Shown here: one piece after another, positions 5,054-59,099 of the stretch
Position numbering within the stretch: the first letter of the stretch is position 1
How the letters are laid out: each line of letters opens with the position of its first letter
NCBI GenBank assembly: GCA_038326985.1
Contig: JBBQKQ010000002.1
Coordinates: 2,978 to 66,977, forward strand
From: Minisyncoccia bacterium
GTDB taxonomy: Bacteria; Patescibacteriota; Minisyncoccia; Phycocordibacterales; UBA5272
DNA length: 64,000 nt
Direction: 5' to 3'
Position numbers and translations under genes: made by a program
The notes under the pieces: generated by a model
The model's input: only the letters and a program-made list of their open reading frames with translations
The model's database searches: none
What the model was told of the DNA's origin: nothing

Positions 5054-5087
5054 GACCCCTCTTAACCTCCCCTTGGTAAGGGGAGGG
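5054..5087. repeat. Palindromic repeat family copy a, intergenic: GACCCCTCTTAACCTCCCCTTGGTAAGGGGAGGG
   Basis: Stem CCTCCCCTT / AAGGGGAGG with a 3 nt loop. It sits immediately 3' of the minus-strand GT2 gene stop and is near-identical to the copies at 19314 and 27347. Confidence 0.8.
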
Positions 5088-5094
5088 AAAATTC

Positions 5095-6381
5095 CTATCT
5101 CCACTCTCCAGCACGTTTTGTGAGAGTATTATAAAGTGCTCGAGCAAACCACCAAGGAACAATAAACTCCCATAAGAACATATAATAAAGTATGTAATGT
5201 AGTTTGCGGTTTTCTTTAAGTGAAAGATGATGTCCCATAAGCATAAAAATTATTCCAGAGACCAGAACTGGAACTACAAGAAAATATAGAAAATCTGTTC
5301 GAAAATATATTTTCATAAACATATCTATTAAGTCATAATGGTGAAAAATCATATCTAGTTTTAAAACCTGCCAAGTTTGGTAAAGGTGAATTATCTTTTT
5401 AACAAAAGTGTAGATAGTAAACAAGGCGATATATAAAACCATAACAACTCCCACCCATCCCAGAGGAATTGTAAGCATTGCAACATTGCCATATTTTGGA
5501 CGAAGTATCATATCTTTGTAATCTAAAGAGTTTTGCATGAATCCTTGGGTCCAACGAAGTCTTTGTTTATAAAGCTTGTAAAAAGTATCGGGTGTAGAAG
5601 TTTCAACATAGGCATCGGTAGCAGATACAATTTTCATAAAATTTTTTTGCATACGAAAAGTTATTTCCATGTCTTCGGTATTGTGCGCCGGTTTATAACC
5701 GCCAATTTTTTCAAACACTACACGTCTAAAAAGTGAAAATGGACCAGGTGTAACATGTATTCCATTTATCGCAGAAAATATTCTTTTTAATAGTAGTCCA
5801 AAATTGTACTCTACACTTTGTATTGCTTGAAGGATATTTTCTGGTTTACGTACCACCATCATTGGAGTAACTGCCATCACCTCTTTATTTTCTTCGAATG
5901 GTATGAGCATATTTTTTAAAGCGTCAGGAAAAACAAAAGAGTCAGCATCTAGACATCCAAATATTTCACAGTCAGGGTTTTTCTCAAGCACAAAATTTAA
6001 AACTGTGTGTTTCCCACCATTTTCTTTTTGAAGAACAATAAGTTGGTCAAACTTGTCATATTTTTCCTTGCAGTTTTTAAGAATTTCAAAAGTATTGTCT
6101 TTAGACCCATCGTCAACTGCCCAGATTTTAAATTTGTATTTTGGATAATTTATTGCCAAAAGCGAAAGAATAGTTTTTTCTACCGTCTTACTTTCATTCC
6201 AGCAGGGTACTGCAATTACAACTTCTGGATAGTAGGTTAAGTTTTTTTCTTTTGTTGAAGCAAAAATAGTGTCCCATTCTTCAAAAAGTACAATCAACAA
6301 ATACACTTGTACGTAAAGGGCAATAAAGGTAAATAAATAAATTGGGTAAACCTCCATAAATTTGTCTGTATTATACAACAA
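5095..6381 (-). CDS. Processive family-2 glycosyltransferase (cellulose/chitin/PNAG synthase-like), integral membrane
   Basis: GT2 motifs AVPCWNES...DDGSKDNT and DAD, the QRLRWTQG (QxxRW) processivity motif, and multiple TM helices flanking the catalytic domain. Confidence 0.75.
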   Translation of the reverse strand: MLYNTDKFMEVYPIYLFTFIALYVQVYLLIVLFEEWDTIFASTKEKNLTYYPEVVIAVPCWNESKTVEKTILSLLAINYPKYKFKIWAVDDGSKDNTFEILKNCKEKYDKFDQLIVLQKENGGKHTVLNFVLEKNPDCEIFGCLDADSFVFPDALKNMLIPFEENKEVMAVTPMMVVRKPENILQAIQSVEYNFGLLLKRIFSAINGIHVTPGPFSLFRRVVFEKIGGYKPAHNTEDMEITFRMQKNFMKIVSATDAYVETSTPDTFYKLYKQRLRWTQGFMQNSLDYKDMILRPKYGNVAMLTIPLGWVGVVMVLYIALFTIYTFVKKIIHLYQTWQVLKLDMIFHHYDLIDMFMKIYFRTDFLYFLVVPVLVSGIIFMLMGHHLSLKENRKLHYILYYMFLWEFIVPWWFARALYNTLTKRAGEWR

Positions 6382-6406
6382 AAGTTGATATTTTTCTAGA
6401 TTAAAA

Positions 6407-7195
6407 ATGAGTAGATATTGTGTTATTATATCTAATATGCAAGAAAAAAAAGTCGGTCATTTACACCCAATGTCTTTGATAATAAACTGTGTAACCGAAA
6501 TATTTCAAAAAATTGGTTTTCGAGTAGTAGATGGACCAGAGCTCGAGACAGAGTGGTATAACTTTGATGCCCTAAACGTTTCAAAAGACCACCCAGCTCG
6601 AGACATGCAGGACACTTTTTGGATAGAAACTAAAGATGGAAGTAGAAAAGTTTTAAGAACACAAACTTCTAACATGCAAATAAGAAGTATGGAAGAATGG
6701 GTAAAAACAGATATGTCCGAACCCCTTGCTATTATTGCTCCAGGAAAAGTTTATAGAAATGAGGCGACGGACGCTACGCACGAAGCAAACTTTTACCAAT
6801 TAGAGGGTTTATTTGTAGATAAAAAAGAGCATGTTTCTGTGGGGAATTTGAAATGGGTTATAGAGAAAATGCTTACCGATTTATTTAATAGACCAATAAG
6901 TATTCGTTTTCGCTCATCATACTTTCCATTCGTTGAGCCCGCACTTGAGGTGGACATGTCTTGTTTTCGTTGTGATGGTGCAGGGTGTAGTACGTGTAAA
7001 CAAAGTGGTTATATTGAGCTTGGAGGAAGTGGAATGGTACATCCAAATACTTTGAACATGTGTGGTATAGATAGTTTAAAATACTCAGGCTTCGCATTTG
7101 GTTTTGGTATTGATAGAATAATAATGATGCTTTACGGGGTGGAAGATATTCGACTTCTTTATAATGGTGACATGAGGTTCACGAGTCAATTTTAA
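6407..7195 (+). CDS. pheS: Phenylalanine--tRNA ligase alpha subunit, short form
   Basis: Class II aaRS motifs: HPARDMQDTFW, QTSNMQIRSM, APGKVYRNEATDATHEANFYQLEG and FPFVEPALEVD. Confidence 0.85.
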   Translation: MSRYCVIISNMQEKKVGHLHPMSLIINCVTEIFQKIGFRVVDGPELETEWYNFDALNVSKDHPARDMQDTFWIETKDGSRKVLRTQTSNMQIRSMEEWVKTDMSEPLAIIAPGKVYRNEATDATHEANFYQLEGLFVDKKEHVSVGNLKWVIEKMLTDLFNRPISIRFRSSYFPFVEPALEVDMSCFRCDGAGCSTCKQSGYIELGGSGMVHPNTLNMCGIDSLKYSGFAFGFGIDRIIMMLYGVEDIRLLYNGDMRFTSQF

Positions 7196-7207
7196 ATAAA
7201 TAACAAC

Positions 7208-9163: not shown

Positions 9164-9169
9164 TGATTT

Positions 9170-18658: not shown

Positions 18659-19192
18659 ATGAAACTTTTACTCAAAAAATTAACTTTTAAAAATTTTGCA
18701 GTTTCAATTTTAGTATTTCTAATATACTTCAAAATATTTTTTATTCTTACAAACTATCAACAATTTATAGAGCTCTATAAATATTCTAATTCTTTTTTAA
18801 ATTTCTTTTCAAACTCATTAAGTTATTTTTTTATCTTTTGGTCATCTCTAAATTTTTTAACATACACTTTTAGTATTATCTTTTTTGCTTTTGTATTTCT
18901 ATTTATTCTAACATTTACAATTGCAAAAGCGGGCATGAAAAATATATTTAAAAAAGTTCATAAATATAATATAGTTGGTAGTGTGCTTTCTTTTTTTGGT
19001 TTTGGTTGTGTTGCTTGTGGACAGACACTACTTTACCCCATACTTCTTTTCTTGTTTACCAATGTTTCCGGAGCACTTGTAGAGTATGTGGGTAATTTTG
19101 CAATGTTTTTAGGAATTATATTTTTGTATTTTGGAATAAAACAAAATCTTGAATTAATCAAAATCGAAGATAAAAAAATATGTATTATTTAA
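18659..19192 (+). CDS. Hypothetical polytopic membrane protein
   Basis: Multiple hydrophobic helices and a conserved-looking GFGCVACGQT segment. No assignable family. Confidence 0.35.
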   Translation: MKLLLKKLTFKNFAVSILVFLIYFKIFFILTNYQQFIELYKYSNSFLNFFSNSLSYFFIFWSSLNFLTYTFSIIFFAFVFLFILTFTIAKAGMKNIFKKVHKYNIVGSVLSFFGFGCVACGQTLLYPILLFLFTNVSGALVEYVGNFAMFLGIIFLYFGIKQNLELIKIEDKKICII

Positions 19193-19833
19193 ATAATCCA
19201 AAAAAATTAATTGCCTACAGTATTATTTTTATAATTGGATATTTTTTAGGAGACAAAACAATTCAAAACTTTTCTTTAGACAACTTAAAAATCACCCTTA
19301 GTCCCTCTAATCAGACCCCTTCTAGCCTCCCCTTGGATAAGGGGAGGGACCTCATTGCAACTAGTACAAAATATATTGTAAATTATGTTGTAGATGGTGA
19401 CACTATTCATGTAAAAAATGAAAATGGCGTTGAGACTAAAGTAAGACTTTTAGCAGTAAATACTCTTGAGCTTCATGCAACGAGCTCAAGAGAAAAATGC
19501 TTAGCAGAACAAGAAAAACAGTTCACTAAACAAAACCTTCTAGGAAAAGAGGTTGTTTTAACAGCTGATCCCACTCAACCAAAACTTGATAAATATGGTC
19601 GAAGTTTGTTTTATATTAGCCTCACCCCACCTCGAAACGATGGCAAGGGTACACTTGAAGCGAAGCAAGAGGGAGAAGAGCAAACCTTTAATGAATTATT
19701 GATGAAAACTGGAAATGCGAAAATTTATAAGTCTTCACCACCTGCACAAATGTATACAAAATATTTAGATTTACAAAATCAAGCAATTCAAAGTCGTGTT
19801 GGTATTTGGGACCCGACAAATTGCAAATTATAA
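19180..19833 (+). CDS. Thermonuclease (staphylococcal nuclease, SNase)-like secreted or membrane-anchored nuclease
   Basis: N-terminal TM helix and an SNase core: YVVDGDTIHV...KVRLLAVNTLE...DKYGRSL. Carries in-frame palindromic repeat copy b. Confidence 0.7.
   Translation: MYYLNNPKKLIAYSIIFIIGYFLGDKTIQNFSLDNLKITLSPSNQTPSSLPLDKGRDLIATSTKYIVNYVVDGDTIHVKNENGVETKVRLLAVNTLELHATSSREKCLAEQEKQFTKQNLLGKEVVLTADPTQPKLDKYGRSLFYISLTPPRNDGKGTLEAKQEGEEQTFNELLMKTGNAKIYKSSPPAQMYTKYLDLQNQAIQSRVGIWDPTNCKL
19314..19348 (+). repeat. Palindromic repeat family copy b, in-frame inside the SNase-like gene
   Basis: GACCCCTTCTAGCCTCCCCTTGGATAAGGGGAGGG, translated as TPSSLPLDKGRD. Confidence 0.8.
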
Positions 19834-27035: not shown

Positions 27036-27704
27036 GTGCTAAGTAAAGAAGCGCAGTTTCTAAAAAAGAAAGATAAAATATTGGGTAAAATAATTTTAGA
27101 GGATTTACCTGTGCTAAAAAGTAGGGGAAATGTCTACGAGTCGTTACTCTCATCAATTATTTCTCAACAAATTTCATTAGGAGCAGCAAGATCAATAAAA
27201 GAAAAATTCTTAAAATTATTCAATAAAAATACATTGAAATTTCCACGCATAAAAGAACTATTGGAAATAAGCGACGAAGATTTGAGAAGTGCCGGACTTT
27301 CGAAACCAAAAATAGGTTATATGAAAAATGTTGCAGAACATTATAAGACCCCACCTAGCCTCCCCTTGTTAAGGGGAGGAACAGTGCAATATGAAAATAT
27401 GAGTGATAGTGAAGTAATAGCAGATTTAGTAAAAATAAAGGGTGTGGGAGAGTGGACAGCTGAAATGATACTTATTTTTTCCCTACTTAAACCGGATGTG
27501 TATTCTTATAAAGATTTAGCATTAACAAATACTATAATCGAAACTTACAATATAAAAAAAGACAACTACACTCCAAAACAACTGAAAGAAGAAGTTTTAA
27601 AAATAACTGACAAATGGTCCCCGCACCGAAGCTTGGCTTCTAGATATTTATGGGAATATAGAGGTAAAAAGAAAATAAAATTAATAAATAAAAATCTCAC
27701 TTGA
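27036..27704 (+). CDS. HhH-GPD superfamily DNA glycosylase (AlkA / 3-methyladenine glycosylase II-like), GTG start
   Basis: HhH-GPD core VKIKGVGEWTAEMILIFSL...D. Contains in-frame palindromic repeat copy c just upstream of the HhH motif. Confidence 0.65.
   Translation: MLSKEAQFLKKKDKILGKIILEDLPVLKSRGNVYESLLSSIISQQISLGAARSIKEKFLKLFNKNTLKFPRIKELLEISDEDLRSAGLSKPKIGYMKNVAEHYKTPPSLPLLRGGTVQYENMSDSEVIADLVKIKGVGEWTAEMILIFSLLKPDVYSYKDLALTNTIIETYNIKKDNYTPKQLKEEVLKITDKWSPHRSLASRYLWEYRGKKKIKLINKNLT
27347..27380 (+). repeat. Palindromic repeat family copy c, in-frame inside the glycosylase gene
   Basis: GACCCCACCTAGCCTCCCCTTGTTAAGGGGAGGA, translated as TPPSLPLLRGGT. Confidence 0.8.
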
Positions 27705-30681: not shown

Positions 30682-31020
30682 TTGCTTCGTTTTTTGTTTG
30701 GGTGTAGAATTTTAGATGACCGACAAAACGGTCAGCGTTCAAAGGAAAAAAAAGATGGCAAAAAGCAAACGAGGAGCCGTAAAGGCATCCCGGAGGAGGA
30801 GGTGCCTTAGTGGTAATCCTGATTTGGTGGGGCAACATCACCAACTGCAAACAACCACGTTAGGTGGGGACTCGAGAGAGACTCCAAAAAGATATGACTA
30901 TGGGGGACGAACCTTTGTGTTTCCGGAAAGCACTTGGGAGTTGAATGATCTCAACTTCTAAGCTCAGTCTTCTTTGGGAAACGTTTGTGGGGCGCTGCAA
31001 AGCAGCGCCCCTTTTACTTT
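30682..31020 (+). other. Mini transcription unit 1: TTGCTT-N17-TAGAAT promoter, SD plus a 68 aa basic ORF (30755-30961), and a GC hairpin terminator (30988-31020). Possibly an sRNA.
   Basis: Promoter box TTTGGGTGTAGAAT shared with unit 2. AGGA Shine-Dalgarno 10 nt before the ATG. Terminator GGGGCGCTGCAAAGCAGCGCCCC + TTTTACTTTTT. About 45% GC in a ~30% GC genome. Confidence 0.35.
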
Positions 31021-31055: not shown

Positions 31056-31336
31056 TTGCTTTGTTTAAAGTTTGGGTGTAGAATTTAAAAGCTGTCAACC
31101 TGTAAAAGAAGGAAAAATCATGACTAAAAAGAAACCTTCAGGTGCACATGGCGCAAAAGGGGCAAAGCTTAGACGTGCAGAAAGATGGCTGCGTCAGAAC
31201 TTTGCGAAGTTCTTTTTCAGAACTCCGCGGATGACTCAAGAAACACCTTCGGTGATCTTGCATCAAGCGACAGGTTAATCCCGTAGAGCCAAAAAGAGGT
31301 AGGGGCGTCACAAATCGACGCCCCTTTTACTTTTTA
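31056..31336 (+). other. Mini transcription unit 2, paralogous to unit 1: TTGCTT-N17-TAGAAT promoter, SD plus a 52 aa basic ORF (31120-31278), and a GC hairpin terminator (31302-31336)
   Basis: Same promoter box AGTTTGGGTGTAGAAT and the same terminator tail GCCCCTTTTACTTTTTAA as unit 1. The ORF starts MTKKKPSGAHGAKGAKLRRAERW. Confidence 0.35.
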
Positions 31337-31361: not shown

Positions 31362-32684
31362 ATGATACTGAAAGATTTAGATAAATTTAAGCTTCCGGAC
31401 GAAAGTGGAGTTTATTTTTTTATGGGACCCCCCCTAACCCCCCCTTATACAGGGGGGGAAGAGAACATCCTTTACATTGGTAAAGCTACAAGTTTAAAAA
31501 GTAGAGTTAAAAGTTATTTTGATAATAATATTTTACATACCCGTGGTCTTCACATTGCAAACATGGTGAGCTTGGCCAAAAGTATTAAATTTGAAACTAC
31601 AAGAAGTGTTTTAGAAGCACTTCTGCTTGAGCAAGAGCTAATAAAAAAACATAAACCAAAATTCAACAGCGAAGCAAAAGATGATAAAAGTTTTTTTGTT
31701 TTGGTGATAACAAAAGAAGATTTTCCTAGAGTACTACTAGTAAGAAACAAAGATATAGACAAAGAAAATAACCTAGTTTTAAAAAGTAAATTACTTGGTA
31801 AGAAAGTAGAAAATAAAAAAGAAATTGTAAAAGTTGAAAAAACTTTCGGACCGTATTCAAGTGGGCAAAGTGCAAAAGATGCTTTAAAGCTTATTCGTAA
31901 AATTTTTCCATTTCGAGATAAATGTGATCTTTATGACAAGAAAAAATCTTGGCAAAAAAAAGCCTGTTTTTCATATTCTATAGGTCTGTGTCTAGGAACG
32001 TGTGCTGGAGTAATTTCTAAAACGAAATACCAAAACCATATTGAAAGACTAATAACTTTTTTAGAAGGGGATGGGGAAAAGGTGCGAAAAGATTTAGAAA
32101 AAGATATGCAAACTGCCAGTGACAAATTAGAATTTGAAGAAGCGCAAAGAATAAAAGAAATACTTTTTGCGCTCGAGCATATTCGAGATTCTCATCTTAT
32201 AAATCGTGATATAAAAGAAGAAAATAAAAGCACTCGTATAGAGGCTTTCGATATCGCACACATGTCTGGTCAAAACAGAGTCGGGGTAATGGTGGTTGTA
32301 CAAGGTGGAGTCCCTAATAAAAGCCAATACAAAAAGTTTAAAATCTCGAAAGATGAAAACGACGACTTAGAAGGATTAAAAGAGCTTTTTTTAAGAAGAA
32401 TAAAACACTTGGAATGGGGAATACCAGATGTAGTTATTGTTGACGGTGATGAAAGACATATAAATGTTGCAGAAAAAATTTTAATTGAAAACAACCTAGA
32501 TAAAACAGTAAAAGTTGTAGCAGTAACAAAAAACCGCCAACACAAAGCACAAAAAATAACAGGTGATAAAAAAATTGTGGAAGAGTTTCAAAGAGAAATA
32601 ACTTTAGCAAACAGCGAAGCCCATAGATTTGCAATAACTTATCATAAAAATTTACGCAAAAAAAGTTTTATACCTAAAAACTGA
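31362..32684 (+). CDS. uvrC: UvrC-like excinuclease, short 440 aa form: GIY-YIG, Cys-rich, UVR and RNase H-like start, but lacking the C-terminal Endo V-like and HhH2 domains
   Basis: GIY-YIG motifs GVYFFM...ILYIGKATSLKSRVKSYF. Cys cluster CDLYD..CFSYSIGLCLGTCAG. UVR motif EFEEAQRIKEILFALEHI. IEAFDIAHMSGQ motif. The ORF ends where the canonical C-terminal domains would follow. Carries in-frame repeat copy g inside the GIY-YIG motif. Confidence 0.6.
   Translation: MILKDLDKFKLPDESGVYFFMGPPLTPPYTGGEENILYIGKATSLKSRVKSYFDNNILHTRGLHIANMVSLAKSIKFETTRSVLEALLLEQELIKKHKPKFNSEAKDDKSFFVLVITKEDFPRVLLVRNKDIDKENNLVLKSKLLGKKVENKKEIVKVEKTFGPYSSGQSAKDALKLIRKIFPFRDKCDLYDKKKSWQKKACFSYSIGLCLGTCAGVISKTKYQNHIERLITFLEGDGEKVRKDLEKDMQTASDKLEFEEAQRIKEILFALEHIRDSHLINRDIKEENKSTRIEAFDIAHMSGQNRVGVMVVVQGGVPNKSQYKKFKISKDENDDLEGLKELFLRRIKHLEWGIPDVVIVDGDERHINVAEKILIENNLDKTVKVVAVTKNRQHKAQKITGDKKIVEEFQREITLANSEAHRFAITYHKNLRKKSFIPKN
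31426..31466 (+). repeat. Palindromic repeat subfamily-2 copy g, in-frame in the uvrC-like GIY-YIG motif
   Basis: GACCCCCCCCTAACCCCCCCTTATACAGGGGGGGAAGAGAAC, translated as GPPLTPPYTGGEEN, between GVYFFM and ILYIGKA. Confidence 0.8.
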
Positions 32685-37217: not shown

Positions 37218-37703
37218 ATGTCAAAAGAAGAAAAATTAGAATTTACACAAATGGTTCGAGATTCAATCAGAGTTGATTTGAAAGATGAGCATAATTATTT
37301 TGATTTGAAATTTAAAGAGGAGAGTGAAAAGAATGATGGAAGATTTAAAATCGAAAGTGAAAAAACCGATTATAGATTTAAGCTAGAAAGTGAAAAGAAT
37401 GATGAAAGATTTAGAATCGAAAGTGAAAGGAGTGATGATAGACTTATAGAATTTTCTAGGAATATGGTTGAGGCCGTTGATCTTCGTGTAAAAAACGCAA
37501 TAAAAGAAAATAATGAATTTATTCTCAGTGGCATGCAAAACCTGCTTGTTGATTTTAGAGAAGCAATTAAAGATGATAACCGTTCTACAAAAAGAAAAGT
37601 AGATGAAATGGCAAGTGTTTCTGAAAAAGTAAGCTGGTTGGAAGGTATGGTAAATAATACAATAATGCCAAAGATAAATTGGCTGTATTCTAAGGTTTCT
37701 TAA
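37218..37703 (+). CDS. Hypothetical coiled-coil protein containing four tandem 13 aa repeats (ESEKNDxRFKI)
   Basis: Tandem 39 bp DNA repeats at 37317-37446: GAAAGTGAAAAGAATGATGAAAGATTTAGAATC x4, with variants. Confidence 0.4.
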   Translation: MSKEEKLEFTQMVRDSIRVDLKDEHNYFDLKFKEESEKNDGRFKIESEKTDYRFKLESEKNDERFRIESERSDDRLIEFSRNMVEAVDLRVKNAIKENNEFILSGMQNLLVDFREAIKDDNRSTKRKVDEMASVSEKVSWLEGMVNNTIMPKINWLYSKVS

Positions 37704-41111: not shown

Positions 41112-41729
41112 TTATTTTTTTAGACTACTAATTTCTTTTAGTAAAATCTCTAGTGTATTTTCTATTTTTTCCAAACGTGCTTTTTGCTCGAAACGGCGGC
41201 GTTTCTCGTCCTGCTCGGCAATTAGTTCTTCTTCATCTTCCATCATTTCTTCTTGGATATCTTCCACGTCTTCTGCGAGCTCATCAACTGTTTTATTCAT
41301 TTCTTCCACATCTTCACTCATTTCTTCCATGTCTTTAGAAACATCCGCAACATCTTCTTGTATTTCATCAACGTCTTTTTCAATCTCATCTACACTTGCA
41401 TTTATTTCCTCTACATCTTCCTGAATTTCTTCCATGTCTTCCTGGATCTCCTCAATATCTTCTGATACTTCTTCAATAACTTGAGTTTGCCTATTTATAG
41501 AAATTTGGATAAAAAGCGCAAGGTAAATTGCTTCTAGAGATAATATTGTAGTTAATACAATTAAAGTGTCCTGATAAGAAAAATTTGTAACCAATGGAAA
41601 TACTAAAAATAATATAAACAAAATAGTGTGTACAACAATTGAGGTCATAGAGCCAAAAGCAGCAGTAAACTTTTCGTCAATATTTACTATTTTAGCTTTA
41701 CTTTTCTTTTTAGAATTGGATTTGACCAT
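41112..41729 (-). CDS. Membrane protein with two TM helices and a highly acidic heptad-repeat tail (EE[IM]QEDxEE x ~12)
   Basis: Tandem 21 bp-periodic repeats at about 41215-41470 encoding EDIEEIQEDMEEIQEDVEEINASVDEIEKDVDEIQEDVADVSKDMEEMSEDVEEMNKTVDELAEDVEDIQEEM. Confidence 0.45.
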   Translation of the reverse strand: MVKSNSKKKSKAKIVNIDEKFTAAFGSMTSIVVHTILFILFLVFPLVTNFSYQDTLIVLTTILSLEAIYLALFIQISINRQTQVIEEVSEDIEEIQEDMEEIQEDVEEINASVDEIEKDVDEIQEDVADVSKDMEEMSEDVEEMNKTVDELAEDVEDIQEEMMEDEEELIAEQDEKRRRFEQKARLEKIENTLEILLKEISSLKK

Positions 41730-41757: not shown

Positions 41758-44172
41758 ATGAAAATGCAAGATAAAATACCTTACGAACCAAAAGATATAG
41801 AAAAAAAATGGCAAGACGTTTGGGAAAAGAATAATTTATATAAAAGTGAAATAGATAAAACAAAAACAAAAATGCATGTTTTGGATATGTTTCCATATCC
41901 AAGTGGAGAAGGACTCCATGCAGGACATGCTAAAATTTTTGGAGCCTCAGACATTTATGCCCGAATGAAAAGAATGCAAGGTTTTAATGTTTTAAAAGTA
42001 CAGGGCTATGATGCTTTTGGACTTCCAGCAGAACAGTTTGCAATTAAAAATAAGGTCAACCCAAAAATTTCTACCAAAAAAAATACAGAAAACTTTGAAA
42101 GACAAATGCGACGCCTTGGACTTTCTTATGACTGGAGTAGAAGTGTAAACACAACTGACCCAAAATTTTACAAATGGACCCAATGGATATTTAAACAACT
42201 TTATAAAGATGGACTCTGTTTTGAAAGTCATGAGCCAATAAACTGGTGCCCAAGTTGTAAAACAGGTTTGGCAAATGAAGATTTGGAAGACGGAAAATGT
42301 GAGCGTTGCGGGAGTGTTGTAGAGAAAAAACCAATTCGTCAGTGGGTAATAAAAATAACAGACTACGCTGAAAAACTTTTAAGCGGAGTGGATAATTTAA
42401 ACTGGAAAGAAAGTATAAAAGAAATGCAGAGAAATTGGATTGGGAAAAGTGAAGGAGCGGAAATAGATTTTAGATTAAGTACTAGCCAAACTTTTACCGT
42501 TTTTACAACTCGTCCAGACACACTTTTTGGATGTACTTATTGTGTATTTGCGCCTGAAAATAAATTAGTAGAAGAATTGTTAAATAATAATTTAATTAAT
42601 AATGGGAACGAAGTTAAAAAATATATTTTAGAAGTAAAAGATAAATCTGAAATAGAAAGAACCTCTTCTGGTAAAGAAAAAACCGGTGTAAAACTTGAGG
42701 GTGTATTTGCAATAAACCCCGCAAACCAAAAAGAGGTGCCAGTCTACATTGCAGATTATGTATTAAACAATTATGGAACAGGAGCTATTATGGCGGTACC
42801 AGCACATGACGAGCGAGACTTTGAGTTTGCAAAAAAGTTTGATATAGAAATAATAGAATTAGAAAAGTTTGAAGATAAAAATGAAATAGTAAAAAAAGTT
42901 GGAGGGAAAATGGTTACAAAATATAAACTTCGTGACTGGGTATTTGCAAGACAGAGATATTGGGGTGAGCCTTTCCCAATTGTATTTGACGAAAACCACA
43001 ATCCATTTGTAGTTGCAGACTCTGAACTACCGGTAATACTTCCTGATGTAGAAAGTTATGAGCCAACTGGAGATGGAGAGAGTCCGTTAAAAAATATACA
43101 AGAGTGGGTAGAAGTAAATGGAAAAATAAATAGCGAGGGAGAATTTGAAAGTGATGAAAATGGAAAAATATTTTATAGAGAAACAAATACAATGCCCCAA
43201 TGGGCAGGAAGTAGTTGGTATTGGCTAAGATACATGGACCCTCATAATGATCAGGAAATGGTAAATAAAGAAATTGAAAAATATTGGGGGGATGTCGATA
43301 TCTATCTTGGGGGAATGGAACATGCAACTAGGCATTTAATATATGGTAGATTTTGGAACCAATTTTTATTTGATAAAAAAATAATCTCTACTCCAGAACC
43401 CTTTAAAAGACTTGAAGCTGTAGGGCTAGTGCTTGGAGAAGGTGGTATGAAAATGTCTAAAAGACTCGGAAACGTAATAAATCCAGATGACATTGCTGAT
43501 ATTTTTGGAGTGGATACACTCAGACTATATATTGCTTTTGCTGGGGACTATCATGATGACTATACTTGGGATACAAAAGCTATAGTTGGACCTAGAAGAT
43601 TCATTGAAAGAGTTTGGAATATGCAATACAAGATCCAGACCCCCCCTAGCCTCCCCTCAATTGAGGAGGGGAATAGTTCCCCAAATATCAAGCTAACAAC
43701 TTTACTACACCAAACAATAAAAAAAGTGAGTAATGACTACGAAAAACTACAGTTCAACACTGCTGTGGCTCAGATGATGACATTTATTAATGCGTATGAT
43801 AAAAATGAAAACATTGATTTAGAAAGTTATAAAACTTTACTAAAACTTCTAGCACCGATTTGTCCATTTGTGACAGAAGAAATATGGGAAAGCCTCACCC
43901 CGGCCCTCTCCATAGGAGAGGGAGCAATGCAATCTATTCACCAAGAAGAATGGCCAAAGTATGATGAGCTGCAAACTATAGACAAAGTTGTTAATATCGC
44001 CATACAAATCAACGGTAAATTGCGTGACACATTTTCTATAGCTACAGACAGCCCTGACGTGGAAGTTTTAGAAGTAGCAAAAAATAGAGAACAATATAAA
44101 AAATGGGTAGGTGAGGTAGAGCCAAAAAAAATAATTGTAATTAAAAATAAAATAGTAAATGTTGTACTTTAA
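41758..44172 (+). CDS. leuS: Leucine--tRNA ligase
   Basis: HIGH-type motif PYPSGEGLHAGHA, KMSKS-type GMKMSKRLGN, and CP1/editing and Zn-binding Cys regions. Carries two in-frame palindromic repeat copies. Confidence 0.9.
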   Translation: MKMQDKIPYEPKDIEKKWQDVWEKNNLYKSEIDKTKTKMHVLDMFPYPSGEGLHAGHAKIFGASDIYARMKRMQGFNVLKVQGYDAFGLPAEQFAIKNKVNPKISTKKNTENFERQMRRLGLSYDWSRSVNTTDPKFYKWTQWIFKQLYKDGLCFESHEPINWCPSCKTGLANEDLEDGKCERCGSVVEKKPIRQWVIKITDYAEKLLSGVDNLNWKESIKEMQRNWIGKSEGAEIDFRLSTSQTFTVFTTRPDTLFGCTYCVFAPENKLVEELLNNNLINNGNEVKKYILEVKDKSEIERTSSGKEKTGVKLEGVFAINPANQKEVPVYIADYVLNNYGTGAIMAVPAHDERDFEFAKKFDIEIIELEKFEDKNEIVKKVGGKMVTKYKLRDWVFARQRYWGEPFPIVFDENHNPFVVADSELPVILPDVESYEPTGDGESPLKNIQEWVEVNGKINSEGEFESDENGKIFYRETNTMPQWAGSSWYWLRYMDPHNDQEMVNKEIEKYWGDVDIYLGGMEHATRHLIYGRFWNQFLFDKKIISTPEPFKRLEAVGLVLGEGGMKMSKRLGNVINPDDIADIFGVDTLRLYIAFAGDYHDDYTWDTKAIVGPRRFIERVWNMQYKIQTPPSLPSIEEGNSSPNIKLTTLLHQTIKKVSNDYEKLQFNTAVAQMMTFINAYDKNENIDLESYKTLLKLLAPICPFVTEEIWESLTPALSIGEGAMQSIHQEEWPKYDELQTIDKVVNIAIQINGKLRDTFSIATDSPDVEVLEVAKNREQYKKWVGEVEPKKIIVIKNKIVNVVL
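43638..43671 (+). repeat. Palindromic repeat copy d, in-frame in leuS
   Basis: GACCCCCCCTAGCCTCCCCTCAATTGAGGAGGGG, translated as TPPSLPSIEEGN. Confidence 0.75.
43893..43928 (+). repeat. Palindromic repeat copy i (subfamily-2-like), in-frame in leuS
   Basis: CCTCACCCCGGCCCTCTCCATAGGAGAGGGAGCAATG with stem CCCTCTCC/GGAGAGGG, translated as LTPALSIGEGA. Confidence 0.6.
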
Positions 44173-49721: not shown

Positions 49722-50819
49722 ATGAAAAATAAAAAAGTATTTGTTGGACTAAGTGGAGGAGTAGACTCGAGTGTATCAGCATATTTATTAAAAAAATCTG
49801 GCTTTGATGTGACAGGAGTTTTTATAAAAGGTTGGCAACCAGATTGGATTCCTTGTACATGGATGTCAGATAGAATATCTGCAATGCGAACGGCTGCATA
49901 CTTGGATATTCCATTTATTACTCTTGATTTAGAAATGCAATACAAAAATAAAGTTGTGAGTTATTTACTTGAAGAATACGCAAAAGGGCACACTCCAAAT
50001 CCGGATATGCTTTGTAATAGAGAAATAAAATTTGGAAGTTTTTTAAATTGGAGTTTGAAAAATGGTGCCGACTATGTTGCCACTGGGCATTATGCACAAA
50101 ATTATAAAAATCAACTTTTAGAATCAATAGACAAAGAAAAAGATCAGAGTTATTTTTTATCACAGCTAACTCAAAAAGAGTTGCAACATATTTTATTTCC
50201 AGTAGGGCATTTGGTAAAAGCAGAAGTTCGAGGAATTGCAGCTCAAGCAAAATTGCCTGTTGCAACTAGAAAAGACTCTCAAGGAATATGCTTTGTAGGA
50301 GACTTATCAATGAAAGAATTCTTAAAACGAGAACTTAAGCCAGAAAAGGGAAATGTTGAGAACGTAGATGGGGAAATAATTGGTGAACACGATGGGGCTA
50401 TACTTTACACTATCGGCGAAAGACATGGGTTTACTATAATTAACAATACTGAAAATCAAAAACAATTTTATGTTGTCAAAAAAGATGTTGAGAAAAATGT
50501 GATTGTGGTTTCAGACTCACCCCTAACCCCTCTCCTTCAGAGAGGGGAAGAGAACAAAAAAGAAAAATTTATATATTTAAATGATTTTTCTTTTACACAA
50601 AATATTGATGAGGTGCAAAATAGCAAAAATTTATCTATAAGAATTCGCTATAGAGGTGCAAAAGTCGCAGTAAAATTTATTTCTTATAATGTATCTGAAA
50701 ATATAGTTGTGGTTGAGACTGAAGACAATTTAGTTTTTGATTTTGGACAATTTGGGGTTTTATATGACCGTGAAAGATGTCTGGGTGGTGGAGTAATTTC
50801 TACAAATGTGGTAGAATAA
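49722..50819 (+). CDS. mnmA: tRNA-specific 2-thiouridylase
   Basis: PP-loop VFVGLSGGVDSSVSAYLL, catalytic Cys region DMLCNREIKFG, and GHYAQ. Carries in-frame repeat copy h. Confidence 0.85.
   Translation: MKNKKVFVGLSGGVDSSVSAYLLKKSGFDVTGVFIKGWQPDWIPCTWMSDRISAMRTAAYLDIPFITLDLEMQYKNKVVSYLLEEYAKGHTPNPDMLCNREIKFGSFLNWSLKNGADYVATGHYAQNYKNQLLESIDKEKDQSYFLSQLTQKELQHILFPVGHLVKAEVRGIAAQAKLPVATRKDSQGICFVGDLSMKEFLKRELKPEKGNVENVDGEIIGEHDGAILYTIGERHGFTIINNTENQKQFYVVKKDVEKNVIVVSDSPLTPLLQRGEENKKEKFIYLNDFSFTQNIDEVQNSKNLSIRIRYRGAKVAVKFISYNVSENIVVVETEDNLVFDFGQFGVLYDRERCLGGGVISTNVVE
50525..50566 (+). repeat. Palindromic repeat subfamily-2 copy h, in-frame in mnmA
   Basis: GACTCACCCCTAACCCCTCTCCTTCAGAGAGGGGAAGAGAAC, translated as DSPLTPLLQRGEEN. 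It shares the CCCTAACCC head and GAAGAGAAC tail with copy g. Confidence 0.75.
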
Positions 50820-51550: not shown

Positions 51551-51593
51551 TACCTACTTGCAATTATTTTAAATAATGTTATTATTGTAATTG

Positions 51594-51720
51594 CTGGGTG
51601 GGGGTCCCCCCCGATGACCCACCTAGCGCATGCTGCTGCATCGCCCTACGCAGCAGCAGAGTGGTCCGAACTCCTGGAAGATTAGAGCTATTAAGCTCTC
51701 ATCCAGGGGTTCGGCCATTT
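51594..51720 (+). ncRNA. Candidate structured small RNA or complex terminator: ~125 nt, ~60% GC, three hairpins, ending in a terminator-like stem plus T-tract
   Basis: H1: GGTGGG...CCCACC around a C7 run. H2: TGCTGCTGC-atcgccctac-GCAGCAGCA (9 bp). H3: a 14 bp interrupted stem GGtCCGAACTCCTGG...CCAGGGGTTCGGCC enclosing AGAGCT-atta-AGCTCT, followed by ATTTCTCTTTGCATTTTT. It lies between the stop at 51550 and the rpoB promoter. Confidence 0.3.
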
Positions 51721-55235: not shown

Positions 55236-55270
55236 AACCCCTCCTAACCTCCCCTTGATTAAGGTGAGGA
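55236..55270 (+). repeat. Palindromic repeat copy e in the rpoB-rpoC spacer, or in-frame at the extreme rpoC N-terminus if the 55216 start is used
   Basis: AACCCCTCCTAACCTCCCCTTGATTAAGGTGAGGA, translated in the 55216 frame as TPPNLPLIKVRN. Confidence 0.7.
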
Positions 55271-55284
55271 ACGGGCAAATAAAT

Positions 55285-58200
55285 ATGCAAACATTTAACA
55301 AAAAAATAATTAGAAATAATTTTAAAGAAATTGGACTACGAATAGCTTCACCTGCTCGTATTAAAGAATGGTCATATGGAGAAATCTTGAAACCAGAAAC
55401 TATTAACTACCGAACAGGAAAATCTGAACGAGGTGGACTTTTTGACGAGCGAGTTTTTGGACCAACAAAAAGTTTTGAATGTTATTGTGGAAAATATAAA
55501 CGAATTCGTTATAAAGACATTATTTGTGAAAAATGTGGAGTGCAAGTAACTGACTCCATAGTTCGTCGTGAAAGAATGGGGCATATTGAGCTTGCAACTC
55601 CTGTTTCTCATATTTGGTATTTGAAAGGGACTATTCCTGCCCCACTTCCATTATTTTTGGGTATTCAAGCTTCTCAACTTGAAAAAGTTATTTATTTTGC
55701 AGGTTACATTATCCAAAACGTAAATGAAGTTGAAAAAGCAAAACTTTTAAAAGATCTTGATGGAGAATTTAAAGATAAGCTAGGAAATGCAGCAGACGAA
55801 GCCACAAAAGAAAAACTGCGAGAGTTAATGATGACTGCCAAAGAAGAAATAAAGAACCTCTCCTCTTGGCAAGTTTTGGATGAAGTTACATATAATAAAT
55901 ATTCTGCCAGATATGGAAATGTTTTTGAAGCAGGGATTGGAGCTGAAGCAGTTTACAATATTTTAAAAAATTTAAACCTTCAAGAATTTATAAAAACTCT
56001 TGAAGTAGCGCTTTCAAATGCTGGAAGTGTTGAAAGAGAAAAACTTCAAAAAAGACTATCACTTGTAAGAGGAATGAACGAAGCCGATATCCGCCCAGAA
56101 TGGATGTTTATAAAAACTATGCCAGTTATACCTCCAGGGTTACGACCAATGGTTGCGCTTGAAGGTGGACGACACGCAACTTCAGATGTGAATGATCTTT
56201 ACCGAAGAGTTATAAACAGAAACAATCGTCTTAAAAAATTAATGGCAATAGGTGCTCCTGAAGTAATTTTGCGAAATGAAAAACGTATTTTACAAGAAGC
56301 TTGCGATTCACTTTTTGACAATACAGCACGAGGAAGTAAAGAAATGGCAATGAACGCGACACAACGCCGACAATTAAAATCTCTTGCGGACAACCTGCAA
56401 GGAAAACAAGGAATGCTTCGTCAAAACCTTCTTGGAAAGCGTGTAGACTATTCAGCGCGTTCAGTGATTGTTGTTGGTCCAAGACTAAATTTGAATCAAT
56501 GTGGTCTTCCAAAACATATGGCGCTTGAGCTGTTTAAACCATTCATTATCTCTAAACTTTTAGGAAGAGAATTGGCATTTAACATAAAATCTGCAAATAA
56601 ACTTATAGAAGAAGGAGACCCAGATGTTTGGTCAATATTGGAAGAGGTTATTGAAGGAAAATATGTATTGTTAAACCGTGCACCAACACTTCACCGTCTT
56701 GGTATGCAAGCCTTTATGGTTAAACTTGTAGAAGGAAACGCTATCCAACTCCACCCACTTGTTTGTCCCGCGTTTAACGCAGACTTCGACGGTGACCAAA
56801 TGGCTGTTCACTTACCTCTCGGTGAGGAGTCTCAAATGGAAGCCAGAGAAATCATGGCTGCACAAAAAAATATCTTAAAACCAGGAGATGGGGTACCTTC
56901 TTTCTTTGGAAAGCTTCTAGATCTAGTTTTGGGAGTGTTTTGGATGACAACTATTTTAGAAGAAGACAATAAAACTCCTCAATATTTTTCTTCACCAAAT
57001 GAGGCAATACTTGCTCATGAAAATGGGGTAGTGAGTTTCCGAAATAAAATAATTGTTCTCCCAACAGGATCTGTAAGATATACAAAGTTTGCAGGAAAAA
57101 CTTTCGAGACCACAGTTGGAAGACTTTTGTTTAACTCGGTACTTCCAAATGATTACGAATTCATCAACCAAACTTTAGAACAAAAAAGTTTGAAAAAACT
57201 TTTCGAGGATGTAATTGATAGATATGGAATTGAAAATTCTTGGGTTATTTTTGATCGTGTTAAAAACTTTGCATTCGAATATGCAACAAAATCTGGTGTG
57301 ACATTTGGTTTGTACGATGTAGAAACTCCAGTTGAAAAGGCGTCTCTTGTTGCGGAAGCTAATAAACTTGTAAAAGAAGTTGAAAATAACTTTAACGAAG
57401 GTTTCTTGTCAGATGAGGAAAGATATAAAAAAATTATTGAAATTTGGTCATCTACAAAAACTCGAATTGAAAAATCTTTGCGTGGTGCGTTTAAAGCTGG
57501 CAACCCAATTAAAGACATGGCAGAGTCTGGAGCTCGTGGAAACTATGGTCAGCTAAACCAAATGGCGGGTATGAAAGGTCTTATTCAAAACAACACTGGT
57601 CGTACACTTGATTTTCCGATTATTTCTTCATATAAAGAAGGACTATCACCGATTGAATATTTCGTAACTTCATATGGTGCACGTAAAGGTGGTTCAGATA
57701 CAGCACTTAAAACAGCTCAAGCAGGGTACTTTACTCGTAAACTTGTAGATGTTGCTCAAGATACAATTATCACTGAAGAAGATTGTGGGTCAGAGAATTT
57801 CAAAAATGTTTCAACACAAAACTTAGGAGGAATAGAAATTCCACTTTGGAAAACTATTTGGGGAAGAATATTAGCTGCCGATGTTGTACATGAAGGAAAA
57901 ACGCTTTACAAAAAAGGTGAAATGTTGAAACAATTTGAAGCAAAAGAAATTGATGCTGCGGGTGTTAAAACTGTTTCAATTAGAACCCCACTTACATGTA
58001 TTGCCGAGCGTGGACTATGTCAAAAATGTTATGGACTTGATATGGGTCGTGGAAATTTGGTGCGTCTAGGTGAAGCAGTAGGAATTGTGGCCGCTCAAGC
58101 GATTGGCGAGCCAGGAACACAGCTAACTATGCGTACTTTCCACTCAGGTGGAGTGGCAGGTGTCGATATTACTCAAGGTCTTCCTCGTGTAACAGAACTT

Positions 58201-58971
58201 TTCGAAAAAAGAATGCCCAAGACGCAAGTCGCTGCTACTCTTTCACCTTACGATGCTGAAGTTATGGAAATAACTACAAACGGAAATACAAAACTTATTA
58301 CTCTAATACTTGACGAAGGAGAATCTACTAAAAAATCTAAGGGTGTTAAAGAAGGACAAAAATCTGCACAATTTGAAATTTCTAACAAGCGTGTGGTTGT
58401 TGTGAAGGTTGGTGATCGTGTAAAACGTGGTGACATGTTGACTGATGGTTCAGCAGATATTGATGAACTATTCCACCATGCTGGAGCTGAAAAAGCGCAA
58501 GACTATATTGCAGAAGAAGTAACTAAAGTTTATGAGCTTCAAGGAGCAAGTATTTCACGAAAACACTTGGATATTATTATTAAACAAATGTTTTCTCGTA
58601 TGGAAGTTCTAGACGGCGGAGACTCAAAATATTCTCATGGTGATATTATTCCTGACTATACTTTCAAAAAAGAAAATAGAAAAGTTGAGTCCAAAGGTGG
58701 TCAAATTATGACTGCCGAGCCTATAATCCAAGGAATTACTCAAGCGTCTCTCTCTACAGAATCATGGTTGTCAGCTGCATCATTCCAAAATACTACAAAA
58801 ATTCTTATTAAAGCTGCAACTCGTGGACAACGTGATGAGCTTGTAGGTTTGAAGGAAAATGTTATTGCGGGACGTCTTGTTCCAGTAGGAACAGGTTACC
58901 GAACAAAAGCTGAAAAAGAAGTTGAAGAAATGGAAAAAGAAGCCCAGTTTAATGAGGGATCAGATGAATAA
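55285..58971 (+). CDS. rpoC: DNA-directed RNA polymerase beta' subunit. Start set at ATG 55285. An in-frame upstream ATG at 55216 would add 23 aa including the repeat.
   Basis: Canonical beta' N-terminus begins near ...IASPARIKEWSYGE. Zn-finger CYCGKYKR..C.KCGV and NADFDGD catalytic motif. 1228 aa from 55285. Confidence 0.9.
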   Translation: MQTFNKKIIRNNFKEIGLRIASPARIKEWSYGEILKPETINYRTGKSERGGLFDERVFGPTKSFECYCGKYKRIRYKDIICEKCGVQVTDSIVRRERMGHIELATPVSHIWYLKGTIPAPLPLFLGIQASQLEKVIYFAGYIIQNVNEVEKAKLLKDLDGEFKDKLGNAADEATKEKLRELMMTAKEEIKNLSSWQVLDEVTYNKYSARYGNVFEAGIGAEAVYNILKNLNLQEFIKTLEVALSNAGSVEREKLQKRLSLVRGMNEADIRPEWMFIKTMPVIPPGLRPMVALEGGRHATSDVNDLYRRVINRNNRLKKLMAIGAPEVILRNEKRILQEACDSLFDNTARGSKEMAMNATQRRQLKSLADNLQGKQGMLRQNLLGKRVDYSARSVIVVGPRLNLNQCGLPKHMALELFKPFIISKLLGRELAFNIKSANKLIEEGDPDVWSILEEVIEGKYVLLNRAPTLHRLGMQAFMVKLVEGNAIQLHPLVCPAFNADFDGDQMAVHLPLGEESQMEAREIMAAQKNILKPGDGVPSFFGKLLDLVLGVFWMTTILEEDNKTPQYFSSPNEAILAHENGVVSFRNKIIVLPTGSVRYTKFAGKTFETTVGRLLFNSVLPNDYEFINQTLEQKSLKKLFEDVIDRYGIENSWVIFDRVKNFAFEYATKSGVTFGLYDVETPVEKASLVAEANKLVKEVENNFNEGFLSDEERYKKIIEIWSSTKTRIEKSLRGAFKAGNPIKDMAESGARGNYGQLNQMAGMKGLIQNNTGRTLDFPIISSYKEGLSPIEYFVTSYGARKGGSDTALKTAQAGYFTRKLVDVAQDTIITEEDCGSENFKNVSTQNLGGIEIPLWKTIWGRILAADVVHEGKTLYKKGEMLKQFEAKEIDAAGVKTVSIRTPLTCIAERGLCQKCYGLDMGRGNLVRLGEAVGIVAAQAIGEPGTQLTMRTFHSGGVAGVDITQGLPRVTELFEKRMPKTQVAATLSPYDAEVMEITTNGNTKLITLILDEGESTKKSKGVKEGQKSAQFEISNKRVVVVKVGDRVKRGDMLTDGSADIDELFHHAGAEKAQDYIAEEVTKVYELQGASISRKHLDIIIKQMFSRMEVLDGGDSKYSHGDIIPDYTFKKENRKVESKGGQIMTAEPIIQGITQASLSTESWLSAASFQNTTKILIKAATRGQRDELVGLKENVIAGRLVPVGTGYRTKAEKEVEEMEKEAQFNEGSDE

Positions 58972-59000
58972 AAGTTTATAAAGTAAGGACAATTTAACGA

Positions 59001-59035
59001 AAAAACAGCTATTGAAAAAAATAGCTGTTTTTTTG
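59001..59035 (+). terminator. Rho-independent terminator after rpoC
   Basis: AAAAACAGCTATT-gaaaaaa-ATAGCTGTTTTT followed by T7. Confidence 0.6.
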
Positions 59036-59054
59036 TGGTAATATTAGAAATATA

Positions 59055-59099
59055 AATCCTCCCTAGCCCTCCTTGAGAAAGGAGGGCTAGGGAGGATTT
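59055..59099. repeat. Palindromic repeat family copy f: the longest and perfect copy, a 19 bp stem, intergenic between rpoC and dnaG
   Basis: AAATCCTCCCTAGCCCTCCTT-gagaa-AGGAGGGCTAGGGAGGATTT, a perfect inverted repeat. Confidence 0.8.

Follow-up and report, generated by a model that had tools for sequence, protein, structure and literature searches.

BoxC, PIT and TM repeats have been known since the 1990s. These intrastrand triplex motifs rich in G/C (BoxC/PIT/TMECO) occur in E. coli, cyanobacteria and others; a stable triplex has been obtained in vitro (CD, NMR, melting) with E. coli TMECO oligonucleotides only, and even in E. coli none could be detected in vivo (Holder et al. 2015, PMC4666352). 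Short GC-rich palindromic repeats of another kind, the Rickettsia palindromic elements (RPE) and intragenic REPs, are inserted in frame in functional genes and tolerated in loops. RPE-4 and RPE-6 are CGTC-tagged REPs and RPE-1 consists of longer palindromic insertions, and intragenic REPs favour genes of UvrABC, repair, tRNA synthetases and tRNA modification (Di Nocera et al. 2013, PMC3733652).

The window, i.e. the whole 64,000-nt stretch of DNA that we analysed, comes from a Patescibacteria genome of 33% GC. A scan for tail, linker, arm, loop and second arm (arm'), allowing at most one mismatch per block, found 9 motifs in the window and 0 in 40 Markov-1 simulated windows. A core 13-mer has 6 matches in the window against 0.7 expected. 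The initial annotation had listed at least nine copies of a repeat family; all are present within about 10 nt of the positions it gave, the scan returns exactly these nine, and the family is far above chance. The description of the repeat as a plain two-block palindrome was wrong, as there are three blocks, the 'GACCCC..CTA' flank mirroring the 5' arm. In brief, each copy is made up of a 5' pyrimidine tail, a 3-nt linker (TAA, TAG or CGG), a pyrimidine arm, a loop and a purine arm. The tail is the mirror image of the pyrimidine arm, and the purine arm pairs with the latter by Watson-Crick rules. Elements have a length of 30-42 nt, and the C-rich strand is the + strand in 9/9 copies. Copies 5054, 19314, 27347, 43638, 55236 and 59055 are of the main type, with the stem CCTCCCCTT.

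All DNA fetched for the study together contained 461 pyrimidine/purine hairpins. The tail mirrors the arm at 7/7 positions in 78% of these, compared with 27% after shuffling arms between hairpins, in a sample drawn from loci fetched with main-type patterns and thus enriched for this family. For 13 of the 17 arm classes, 78-100% of tails mirror their own arm. A C in the arm goes with a C in the tail in 2262 of 2292 cases, and a T in the arm with T 316 times, with A 178 times and with C or G 7 times. The linker has 3 nt in 314/399 cases, TAA or TAG being the commonest and CGG among the rest. These counts agree with the triplet rules G.G-C and A.A-T or T.A-T, by which the third block mirrors the duplex arm; the T/A ambiguity in the tail is what the purine motif allows (T.A-T or A.A-T).

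By sequence criteria, the nine copies belong to the class of intrastrand triplex motifs that are rich in G/C. The ITxF-like scan, which asks for three consecutive blocks on one strand (pyrimidine, purine and second purine, or the complement), with stems of 6-15 nt, loops of 1-6 nt and no more than one mismatch, recovers 9/9 copies. With BoxC/PIT/TMECO they have in common a layout in three blocks, which reads Y-R-R on one strand and Y-Y-R on its complement. Stems are likewise G/C-rich and 7-9 nt long; the first loop measures 3-6 nt, and the second, of 3 nt, is TTA or CCG. On the C-rich strand this second loop is TAA/TAG or CGG; the linkers are complementary to the loops TTA and CCG found in types A and B of TMECO. 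One mismatch is tolerated, often at an A-T triplet, inverted doublets occur now and then, and no mobile-element gene is linked. The TMECO consensus is CCCTCNCCC-N3-6-GGGNGAGGG-(TTA or CCG)-GGGNGAGGG. Copy 43893 fits type B with 8-nt stems, and copy 50525 fits type A with a permuted stem; both agree in nearly every block with the consensus or a K-12 copy. The E. coli K-12 BoxC copy CCCTCACCC-TAA-CCCTCTCC-TTCA-GGGAGAGGG in particular matches copy 50525 in each block and has a nearly identical layout. The six main-type copies and copy 31426 carry other stems (CCTCCCCTT and CCCCCCC) and fall within the class but outside the TMECO consensus, whose stem is CCCTCNCCC.

There are also differences from E. 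coli. All 23 copies in K-12 are intergenic, a property described for that strain that is no structural criterion of the class, whereas 6/9 window copies lie inside ORFs. BoxC has no strand bias in K-12, while the window copies all have the same orientation. The density would be about 140 per Mb here, if the window is typical, versus about 5 per Mb in K-12. Together, tail, linker and arm make up a homopyrimidine mirror repeat, which is what H-DNA requires in sequence; unlike in H-DNA, the complementary purine arm is on the same strand, so that a triplex would be possible from one strand alone, without a supercoiled duplex. Predicted hairpins of two copies are weak, with modest z-scores (copy 43638, -6.3 kcal/mol; copy 55236, -5.0 kcal/mol).

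Six copies, all on the + strand, are found in ORFs of conserved genes, as the initial annotation had proposed, and the encoded peptides are missing from most orthologs. Pfam confirmed the host genes as SNase, HhH-GPD, UvrC (GIY-YIG, UVR and RNase H domains), LeuS and MnmA. Aligned with orthologs and PDB homologs, each insert stands out as extra sequence in a variable loop or linker. Copy 19314 (19315-19347) in the SNase-family ORF 19180-19833 encodes TPSSLPLDKGRD (aa 45-58); this peptide lies N-terminal of the SNase domain, which Pfam matches from aa 87 and the PDB from aa 70. The copy at 27347-27379, in the ORF of an HhH-GPD protein resembling 3-methyladenine glycosylase (27036-27704), encodes TPPSLPLLRGGT, exceeding the aligned loop of PDB 2h56 by 6 aa. 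In leuS (41758-44172), copy 43638 (43641-43672) falls in a variable loop of the anticodon-binding region, where it encodes TPPSLPSIEEGN, and a second site (43893-43922) holds the BoxC/TMECO type-B-like copy CCTCACCC-cgg-CCCTCTCC-ata-GGAGAGGG, which encodes LTPALSIGEG. Copy 50525 (50515-50547), the type-A-like ACTCACCCC-taa-CCCCTCTCC-ttc-AGAGAGGGG, lies in mnmA (49722-50819) in the linker N-terminal of the C-terminal barrel. The UvrC-like ORF 31362-32684 holds the copy at 31426-31458, of the CCCCCCC-taa-CCCCCCC type; its peptide, GPPLTPPYTGGEEN, is part of the beta1-beta2 loop in the GIY-YIG domain. In the AlphaFold UvrC model this insert is predicted to be unstructured between strands 16-21 and 36-42, with pLDDT <50 at residues 29-32. 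Several UvrC relatives, counted regardless of whether they have an insert, lack a Pfam GIY-YIG call.

All six coding copies are free of stops and keep the reading frame. The claim that they share one frame relative to the element did not hold, since two frames are used by three copies each: the linker starts at codon position 3 in copies 19314, 27347 and 43638, and at codon position 2 in copies 31426, 43893 and 50525. In the third frame a TAA/TAG linker would read as a stop.

The other copies are intergenic. Copy 5054 (5055-5086, + strand) has the blocks ACCCCTCT-taa-CCTCCCCT-tggta-AGGGGAGG and lies between two minus-strand genes, a glycosyltransferase (5095-6381) and the ORF 4297-5019. The copy at 55236-55269 (+ strand) is located in the rpoB-rpoC spacer. 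It is in frame with an ATG 16 nt downstream (55285) and with a GTG upstream (55216), which leaves two candidate starts for rpoC. Copy 59055 (59056-59097) lies 3' of rpoC, which ends at 58971. It is a terminator-like, 20-bp perfect palindrome followed by TTTTT, carries the motif (tail, TAG and arm) on either strand, has no assigned strand and is predicted to fold with -24.3 kcal/mol.

The match to Rickettsia palindromic elements that the initial annotation had put forward stands for the behaviour of the repeats, inserted in frame in functional genes and absent from most orthologs, and fails for family membership. None of the nine copies has a CGTC tetranucleotide flanking the palindrome or a GTAG next to the stem; the tetranucleotide adjacent to the stem is CTAG, CTAA or CCGG. 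The elements are also much shorter than RPE-1, have a third mirror block and occur beyond one genus. We therefore reject kinship with the RPE, of which RPE-4 and RPE-6 carry the CGTC tag. In-frame insertion is a behaviour in common with these elements and no evidence of homology. Different repeats near one site of orthologs are likewise on record for intragenic REPs, in Xanthomonas recB (PMC3733652). The in-frame intragenic context appears to be new, although the repeat class itself is already known. Small dispersed repeats of heterocystous cyanobacteria, attributed to Elhai and co-workers (2008), are reportedly very short and nest in repeats and genes while sparing function; the likeness, by description, is one of nesting, since small hairpins are nested inside the triplex motif in locus L209 and at leuS site 2 of L002.

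The hairpin is present in 106 of 131 matches to the pattern, which come from at least 15 phyla, and the two free positions of the pattern are almost always [AT]C. The motif is also found in viral contigs, and Photobacterium sp. GJ3 has tandem arrays with 141-nt units. A CPR-specific invention was considered and rejected, as the repeats are of the G/C-rich intrastrand triplex class and the main type is so widespread. No protein family recurs beside the element in 119 loci of about 8 kb, nor did the DNA examined reveal a target-site duplication, a mobilising enzyme or a site filled in one and empty in another of two near-identical genomes.

We suggest that the nine copies, as repeats of the triplex-motif class, are most likely selfish or neutral, are dispersed non-autonomously and persist in tolerant protein loops and linkers; we hold this to be probable. 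In single-stranded DNA the two arms would pair as a hairpin, and on the G-rich complementary strand the third block would lie in the major groove of this hairpin, in a triple helix of the purine motif (class II). For the C-rich strand a weaker, acid-dependent triplex of the pyrimidine motif is conceivable, runs of C+.G-C triplets on this strand being unfavourable at neutral pH. That the copies of this lineage form triplexes is inferred, as are their selfishness and mobility, the latter two purely from the distribution. Movement is perhaps linked to stalled forks or repair. Loops and linkers that tolerate 6-14 extra Pro/Gly-rich residues would keep copies in either of the two stop-free frames, and the ribosome would simply translate them. 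About 92% of this piece of the genome is coding, so many of the persisting copies are expected in protein loops or linkers. Of the intergenic copies, 59055 may double as a terminator and 55236 as a 5'-UTR hairpin. The uniform orientation of the nine copies is not predicted by a purely neutral model and hints at selection or a strand-specific mechanism.

It is possible, though we think it unlikely, that the repeats form a single, actively spreading pan-bacterial family, with structure-driven insertion, for instance at stalled forks or repair intermediates, no dedicated transposase, hits in CPR loops and an orientation set by selection. In gene-dense CPR genomes such a family would have hit the same permissive loops again and again in proteins of repair, replication and translation (UvrA, UvrC, XseA, DnaG, GyrB, RNR, LeuS, MetRS, MnmA and AtpG), and the uniform orientation would reflect selection against a stable G-rich triplex on exposed single-stranded DNA. 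If real, it would generally give rise to new protein loops and make essential genes locally unstable.

Mobilisation in trans by a RAYT (an IS200/IS605-like Y1 transposase), with the tail as recognition or cleavage tag of a REP/REPIN-type element, is improbable. An unpaired 5' tag beside a GC-rich hairpin resembles the geometry of REPs, the inverted doublets and tandem arrays in Photobacterium (L201) and in locus L108 recall REPINs and BIMEs, and the single orientation of the nine copies fits insertion into single-stranded DNA at the replication fork. The host classes are those favoured by intragenic REPs (UvrABC, other repair genes, tRNA synthetases and tRNA-modification enzymes). Against this, the GTAG or CGTC tag is absent beside the stem, and near the 119 loci neither a Y1 transposase nor another recurrent gene was found and no RAYT association was seen. 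REP families are usually species-specific, whereas the triplex repeats span many phyla, and the tail co-varies with the arm as its mirror image, which a simple tag does not need. For BoxC, too, no link to mobile elements is reported (Holder et al., PMC4666352).

Quite improbable, too, is that the copies are cis-acting RNA or DNA signals selected site by site, such as terminators, hairpins sequestering the ribosome binding site, processing or pause sites, or recombination hot spots. In favour, copy 59055 has a strong stem and a T-run directly 3' of rpoC, and copy 55236 lies upstream of the rpoC ATG. In many loci a start codon follows the purine arm AAGGGGAGG at a distance of 5-12 nt, and the nearly perfect hairpins retained in coding copies and the uniform orientation in the window are also compatible with a signal. 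However, for only 19/131 copies does an ORF of at least 60 codons start within the next 30 nt downstream, and six window copies are mid-ORF in unrelated genes. Both orientations occur at the same UvrC loop among relatives, and in E. coli PIT/TMECO elements acted neither as promoters nor as terminators and kept no consistent distance from genes (PMC4666352).

The UvrC and LeuS loops also bear on whether the peptides themselves are old. The initial annotation had stated that orthologs from unrelated lineages with the same peptide at the same position would make it an ancestral protein feature. This is found in part: similar P...G/E-rich peptides are present at the same UvrC loop in 14/39 relatives and at the leuS sites of relatives P0002 and P0019, but the underlying DNA differs in subtype and orientation. 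Across the window and loci L206, L207, L208 and L209, five different motifs on the + or - strand occupy the UvrC loop, and the leuS sites of L001, L002 and L080 also have motifs. Different subtypes in both orientations at the same loops show that insertion at both has been recurrent, and do not reflect ancestry. Ancestral or convergently selected Pro-rich surface loops, with DNA symmetry as a by-product, are thus already largely refuted and very improbable; loops are short in 25/39 UvrC relatives and most LeuS relatives, the filled ones encode unrelated peptides, the same DNA motif occurs between genes and in unrelated phyla, and protein selection leaves the three-block symmetry unexplained. 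Equally far-fetched is that the inserts go untranslated, removed from the mRNA or bypassed by the ribosome like the byp elements of yeast mitochondria, which these GC-rich hairpins in an AT-rich genome recall together with mitochondrial GC clusters, since the coding copies use solely the two stop-free frames and read-through is sufficient.

Repeats of a kind described as strictly intergenic in E. coli (BoxC) are here found for the most part within essential genes, in a CPR genome that is reduced. That one protein loop can hold different subtypes, in either orientation, is a natural experiment on insert tolerance, and the insertion events, dated and independent of one another, could disclose how the elements insert. 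The inserts call for caution in annotation and phylogeny of CPR proteins. They also link two literatures, on in-frame RPE/REP insertions and on triplex-forming repeats, that describe similar behaviour under different names.

The window is AT-rich (33% GC), and its LeuS is 65-74% identical to its best relatives; the named matches (Paceibacterota, Yonathbacteria and similar) point to a Patescibacteria/Paceibacteria-like genome. The repeat finder returned a main family of six copies, with six matches to the core 13-mer in the window against 0.7 expected. In brief, each element consists of a pyrimidine tail, a 3-nt linker, a pyrimidine arm, a loop and a purine arm, and the motif is defined by its symmetry, not by its sequence. 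A search for GC-rich hairpins recovered eight of the nine sites listed in the initial annotation, the ninth, 55236, having a mismatched stem. A scripted scan of the window for the full three-block motif returned all nine and no others, at 5055, 19315, 27347, 31426, 43641, 43893, 50515 (also called 50525), 55236 and 59056, and gave no hits in 40 Markov-1 simulated windows. Hairpin energies predicted for DNA lie between -5 and -10 kcal/mol in eight copies; 59056 is a perfect 20-bp palindrome, predicted at -24.3 kcal/mol.

The tail covaries with the 5' arm and is its mirror image, also where the arm differs. Tail and arm are CCCCCCC and CCCCCCC at 31426, CTCACCCC and CCCCTCTC at 50525, CCTCACCC and CCCTCTCC at 43893, and CCCCCTCC and CCTCCCCC in Photobacterium. 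Of 461 pyrimidine/purine hairpins in the fetched DNA as a whole, 78% carry a tail that mirrors the arm at 7/7 positions, compared with 27% when the arms are shuffled, and most arm classes are matched by their own mirror. Opposite an arm C the tail has a C in 2262 of 2292 cases, and opposite an arm T it has T (316 cases), A (178) or C or G (7). The linker is 3 nt long in 79% of cases, TAA and TAG being the commonest and CGG among the others. Mirror combined with inverted symmetry on one strand is characteristic of an intrastrand triple helix. The ambiguity between T and A in the tail is explained by the purine motif, which permits both T.A-T and A.A-T triplets.

The family was recognised after this mirror symmetry had been noticed, and the literature on triplex and mirror repeats then led to the BoxC/PIT/TMECO repeats of E. 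coli (Holder et al. 2015, PMC4666352). These have the layout CCCTCNCCC-N3-6-GGGNGAGGG-(TTA or CCG)-GGGNGAGGG, and CD and NMR have proven in vitro that they fold into a class II purine-motif triplex. They occur 3610 times across 262 genomes of proteobacteria, and further triplex motifs rich in G/C are abundant in cyanobacteria, Thermus and Neisseria (PMC4666352). The window elements belong to this triplex-motif class. The TTA and CCG loops of BoxC/PIT/TMECO are the complements of linkers in the window family, and the E. coli K-12 copy downstream of lldD aligns block for block with window copy 50525. The element class itself is already known; our literature search found no description of it in Patescibacteria, of a mainly intragenic location or of hot-spot loops.

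All 23 copies in E. coli K-12 are intergenic, without strand bias, without promoter or terminator activity and without a link to mobile elements (PMC4666352), whereas six of the nine window copies are intragenic and all nine have the C-rich strand on the + strand. The + strand carries 93% of the coding sequence in the window, and GC skew is positive throughout. Coding sequence takes up about 92% of the window, so that even three intergenic copies are an excess of intergenic sites. The uniform orientation may stem from selection against the stable triplex that the G-rich strand would form when exposed as a single strand, or from an insertion process specific to one strand. By analogy, the window copies would fold like their E. 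coli relative when single-stranded; that relative is associated with local instability, and no stable triplex has been detected for it in vivo (PMC4666352). We suggest that these repeats are selfish or neutral.

Pfam confirms SNase, HhH-GPD, UvrC (with GIY-YIG, UVR and RNase H domains), LeuS and MnmA as hosts, and the copies lie in frame in loops, in a manner compatible with read-through. Both LeuS copies are in variable loops, at which most of 24 relatives are shorter. The MnmA insert is within the linker before the C-terminal barrel (reference PDB 9hlv), the glycosylase insert adds six residues relative to PDB 2h56, and that in the SNase protein is N-terminal to the nuclease domain. In UvrC, the insert separates the GVYFF and ILYIGKA strands of the GIY-YIG domain, a site where 25 of 39 relatives have a turn of 3-6 residues. 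In the AlphaFold model, strands 16-21 and 36-42 of UvrC are joined by an unstructured loop (residues 22-35), whose pLDDT falls under 50 for residues 29-32. The initial expectation that the inserts are extra relative to orthologs and fall in loops agrees with the UvrC and LeuS comparisons and with the UvrC model. The coding copies had been claimed to share one frame, but two frames are used, with three copies in each, and the third would read the TAA/TAG linker as a stop.

The elements had been likened to Rickettsia palindromic elements (RPE). This holds for behaviour, as in-frame insertion and a bias to genes for UvrABC and other repair proteins, tRNA synthetases and tRNA modification are shared with RPE and intragenic REP (Di Nocera et al. 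2013, PMC3733652). It does not hold for family membership, and neither a GTAG nor a CGTC tag is present at the elements. A gathering search of the window against Rfam, and E-value searches of one fetched locus (L108) and two window regions, yielded nothing beyond tRNAs and noise. A BLAST search of INPHARED phages with a 39-mer gave no match. Literature searches by raw sequence strings gave nothing relevant, and those on palindromic or in-frame repeats gave REP papers only.

A MITE-like element with terminal inverted repeats would require an inverted partner, and one is found within 400 nt downstream in only 16 of 131 copies; the basic element is therefore a single unit. If the tail were a direct repeat, CCTCCCC-class tails should be matched best by the CCCCTCC class, and they are not. 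An assembly or adapter artefact was rejected, since variation in loops and stems is accompanied by compensating changes, the copies keep the reading frame and the elements are present in isolate genomes (Photobacterium, E. coli, Aetokthonos).

Insertion has occurred repeatedly at the same loops. The UvrC beta-hairpin loop carries a CCCCCCC-type motif in + orientation in the window, a BoxC type-B motif in + orientation in the lineage relative L207, and differing motifs in - orientation in L206 and L208. Since divergence cannot give opposite orientations at one site, these are independent insertion events, filtered by protein tolerance. The UvrC junctions of the window and relatives show no evident target-site duplication. 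In L209 (10001-11311, codons 22-36) the triplex motif has a small hairpin, GTCAC-TTC-GTGAC, nested in its linker. In the 80%-identical relative L204 (6512-7816, codons 22-35) the loop is occupied by an unrelated perfect hairpin, GGCGGCGGC-GAA-GCCGCCGCC, of 14 codons, as long as the triplex-repeat insert of the window, which suggests that one hairpin has replaced another, or that hairpins turn over, at one site. In leuS, L001 has a triplex motif at window site 1 that differs from that of the window. At site 2 (near 2870-2950), the element of L002 is decayed or nested, with a small unrelated hairpin, CGTCAGAC-GCATG-GTCTGAC, in the linker/arm region of the triplex repeat. The nested hairpins in L209 uvrC and L002 leuS look like repeat-in-repeat insertion. 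One of two further copies in L002 leuS lies in a loop where another fetched locus, L080, also has a copy and many relatives have a NUDIX domain.

Across the lineage relatives (L001-L003 and L204-L209, roughly 110 kb), about 11 of 12 motifs lie inside a leuS, mnmA, uvrC, uvrA or RNR gene; mainly intragenic placing is a trait of the lineage as a whole. The main-type pattern, ACCCCNNCTARCCTCCCCT, was found at more than 119 loci among the matches listed from species-representative genomes. The hosts among these matches include Patescibacteria, Nitrospirota, Gamma-, Beta- and Alphaproteobacteria, Bacteroidota, Chloroflexota, Planctomycetota, Cyanobacteria, Bacillota and Deinococcota, with GC contents of 0.27 to 0.66, and roughly 85% of the listed copies across all phyla are intergenic. 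The main type is present in viral contigs too. The 3' arm is present in 106 of the 131 matches listed, and both free pattern positions are nearly always [AT]C. With a hairpin-only pattern, the C-rich tail AACCCC[AT]CC adjoins many hairpins. Main-type copies are in frame in AtpG and DnaG of Saccharibacteria, MetRS and LeuS of Patescibacteria, XseA of Parcubacteria and one gammaproteobacterial GyrB. When 2392 ORFs from 119 loci were clustered all against all, no neighbour recurred.

Several related arrangements were observed. In the Saccharibacteria AtpG ORF (L017), two more peptides, SSGSPPRVGGVREG and SSGSPPKVGGARGG, resemble the main-type insert that it also holds, which suggests that this essential gene has taken up repeats several times. 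Photobacterium sp. GJ3 (NZ_CP073579.1) has eleven tandem 141-nt units at L201:19991-21605 and L202:3117-3830, each with two inverted tail and hairpin units around a middle hairpin, resembling a BIME/REPIN array; its replicon has at least 40 matching places. In Vibrio maerlii, V. owensii and Vibrio sp. (L016, L031, L061), a tail and 5' arm, ACCCC[AT]CCTARCCTCCCCTTGTAT, recur every ~146-306 nt without a complementary 3' arm, and may be a different repeat with a common pyrimidine mirror block. Many lineage LeuS orthologs (~950-1030 aa; L001:4798-7845, proteins P0002-P0005 and P0008-P0013, and others) have an inserted NUDIX domain (PF00293, ~190 aa) that immediately precedes the editing domain's FTTRPDT motif; the window LeuS has none.

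Within the window, a lone tail-like block without a hairpin, CCTCACCCCACCTCG, lies inside the SNase ORF at 19625-19645 and may be a repeat remnant. Two GC-rich terminator-like hairpins, GGGGCGCTGC-AAA-GCAGCGCCCC (30989-31011) and AGGGGCGTC-ACAAATC-GACGCCCCT (31301-31325), are both followed by the identical tail TTTTACTTTTTAA; the ~290 nt between them hold no ORF of at least 80 aa and no Rfam match. The spacer upstream of rpoB contains a GC-rich self-complementary sequence, GCTGGGTGGGGGTCCCCCCCGATGACCCACCTAGC (51589-51630), outside the repeat family. Tandem repeats inside ORFs are found at 41248-41478 (105-nt units, minus-strand ORF 41112-41729) and at 37302-37433 (33-nt units, ORF 37218-37703).
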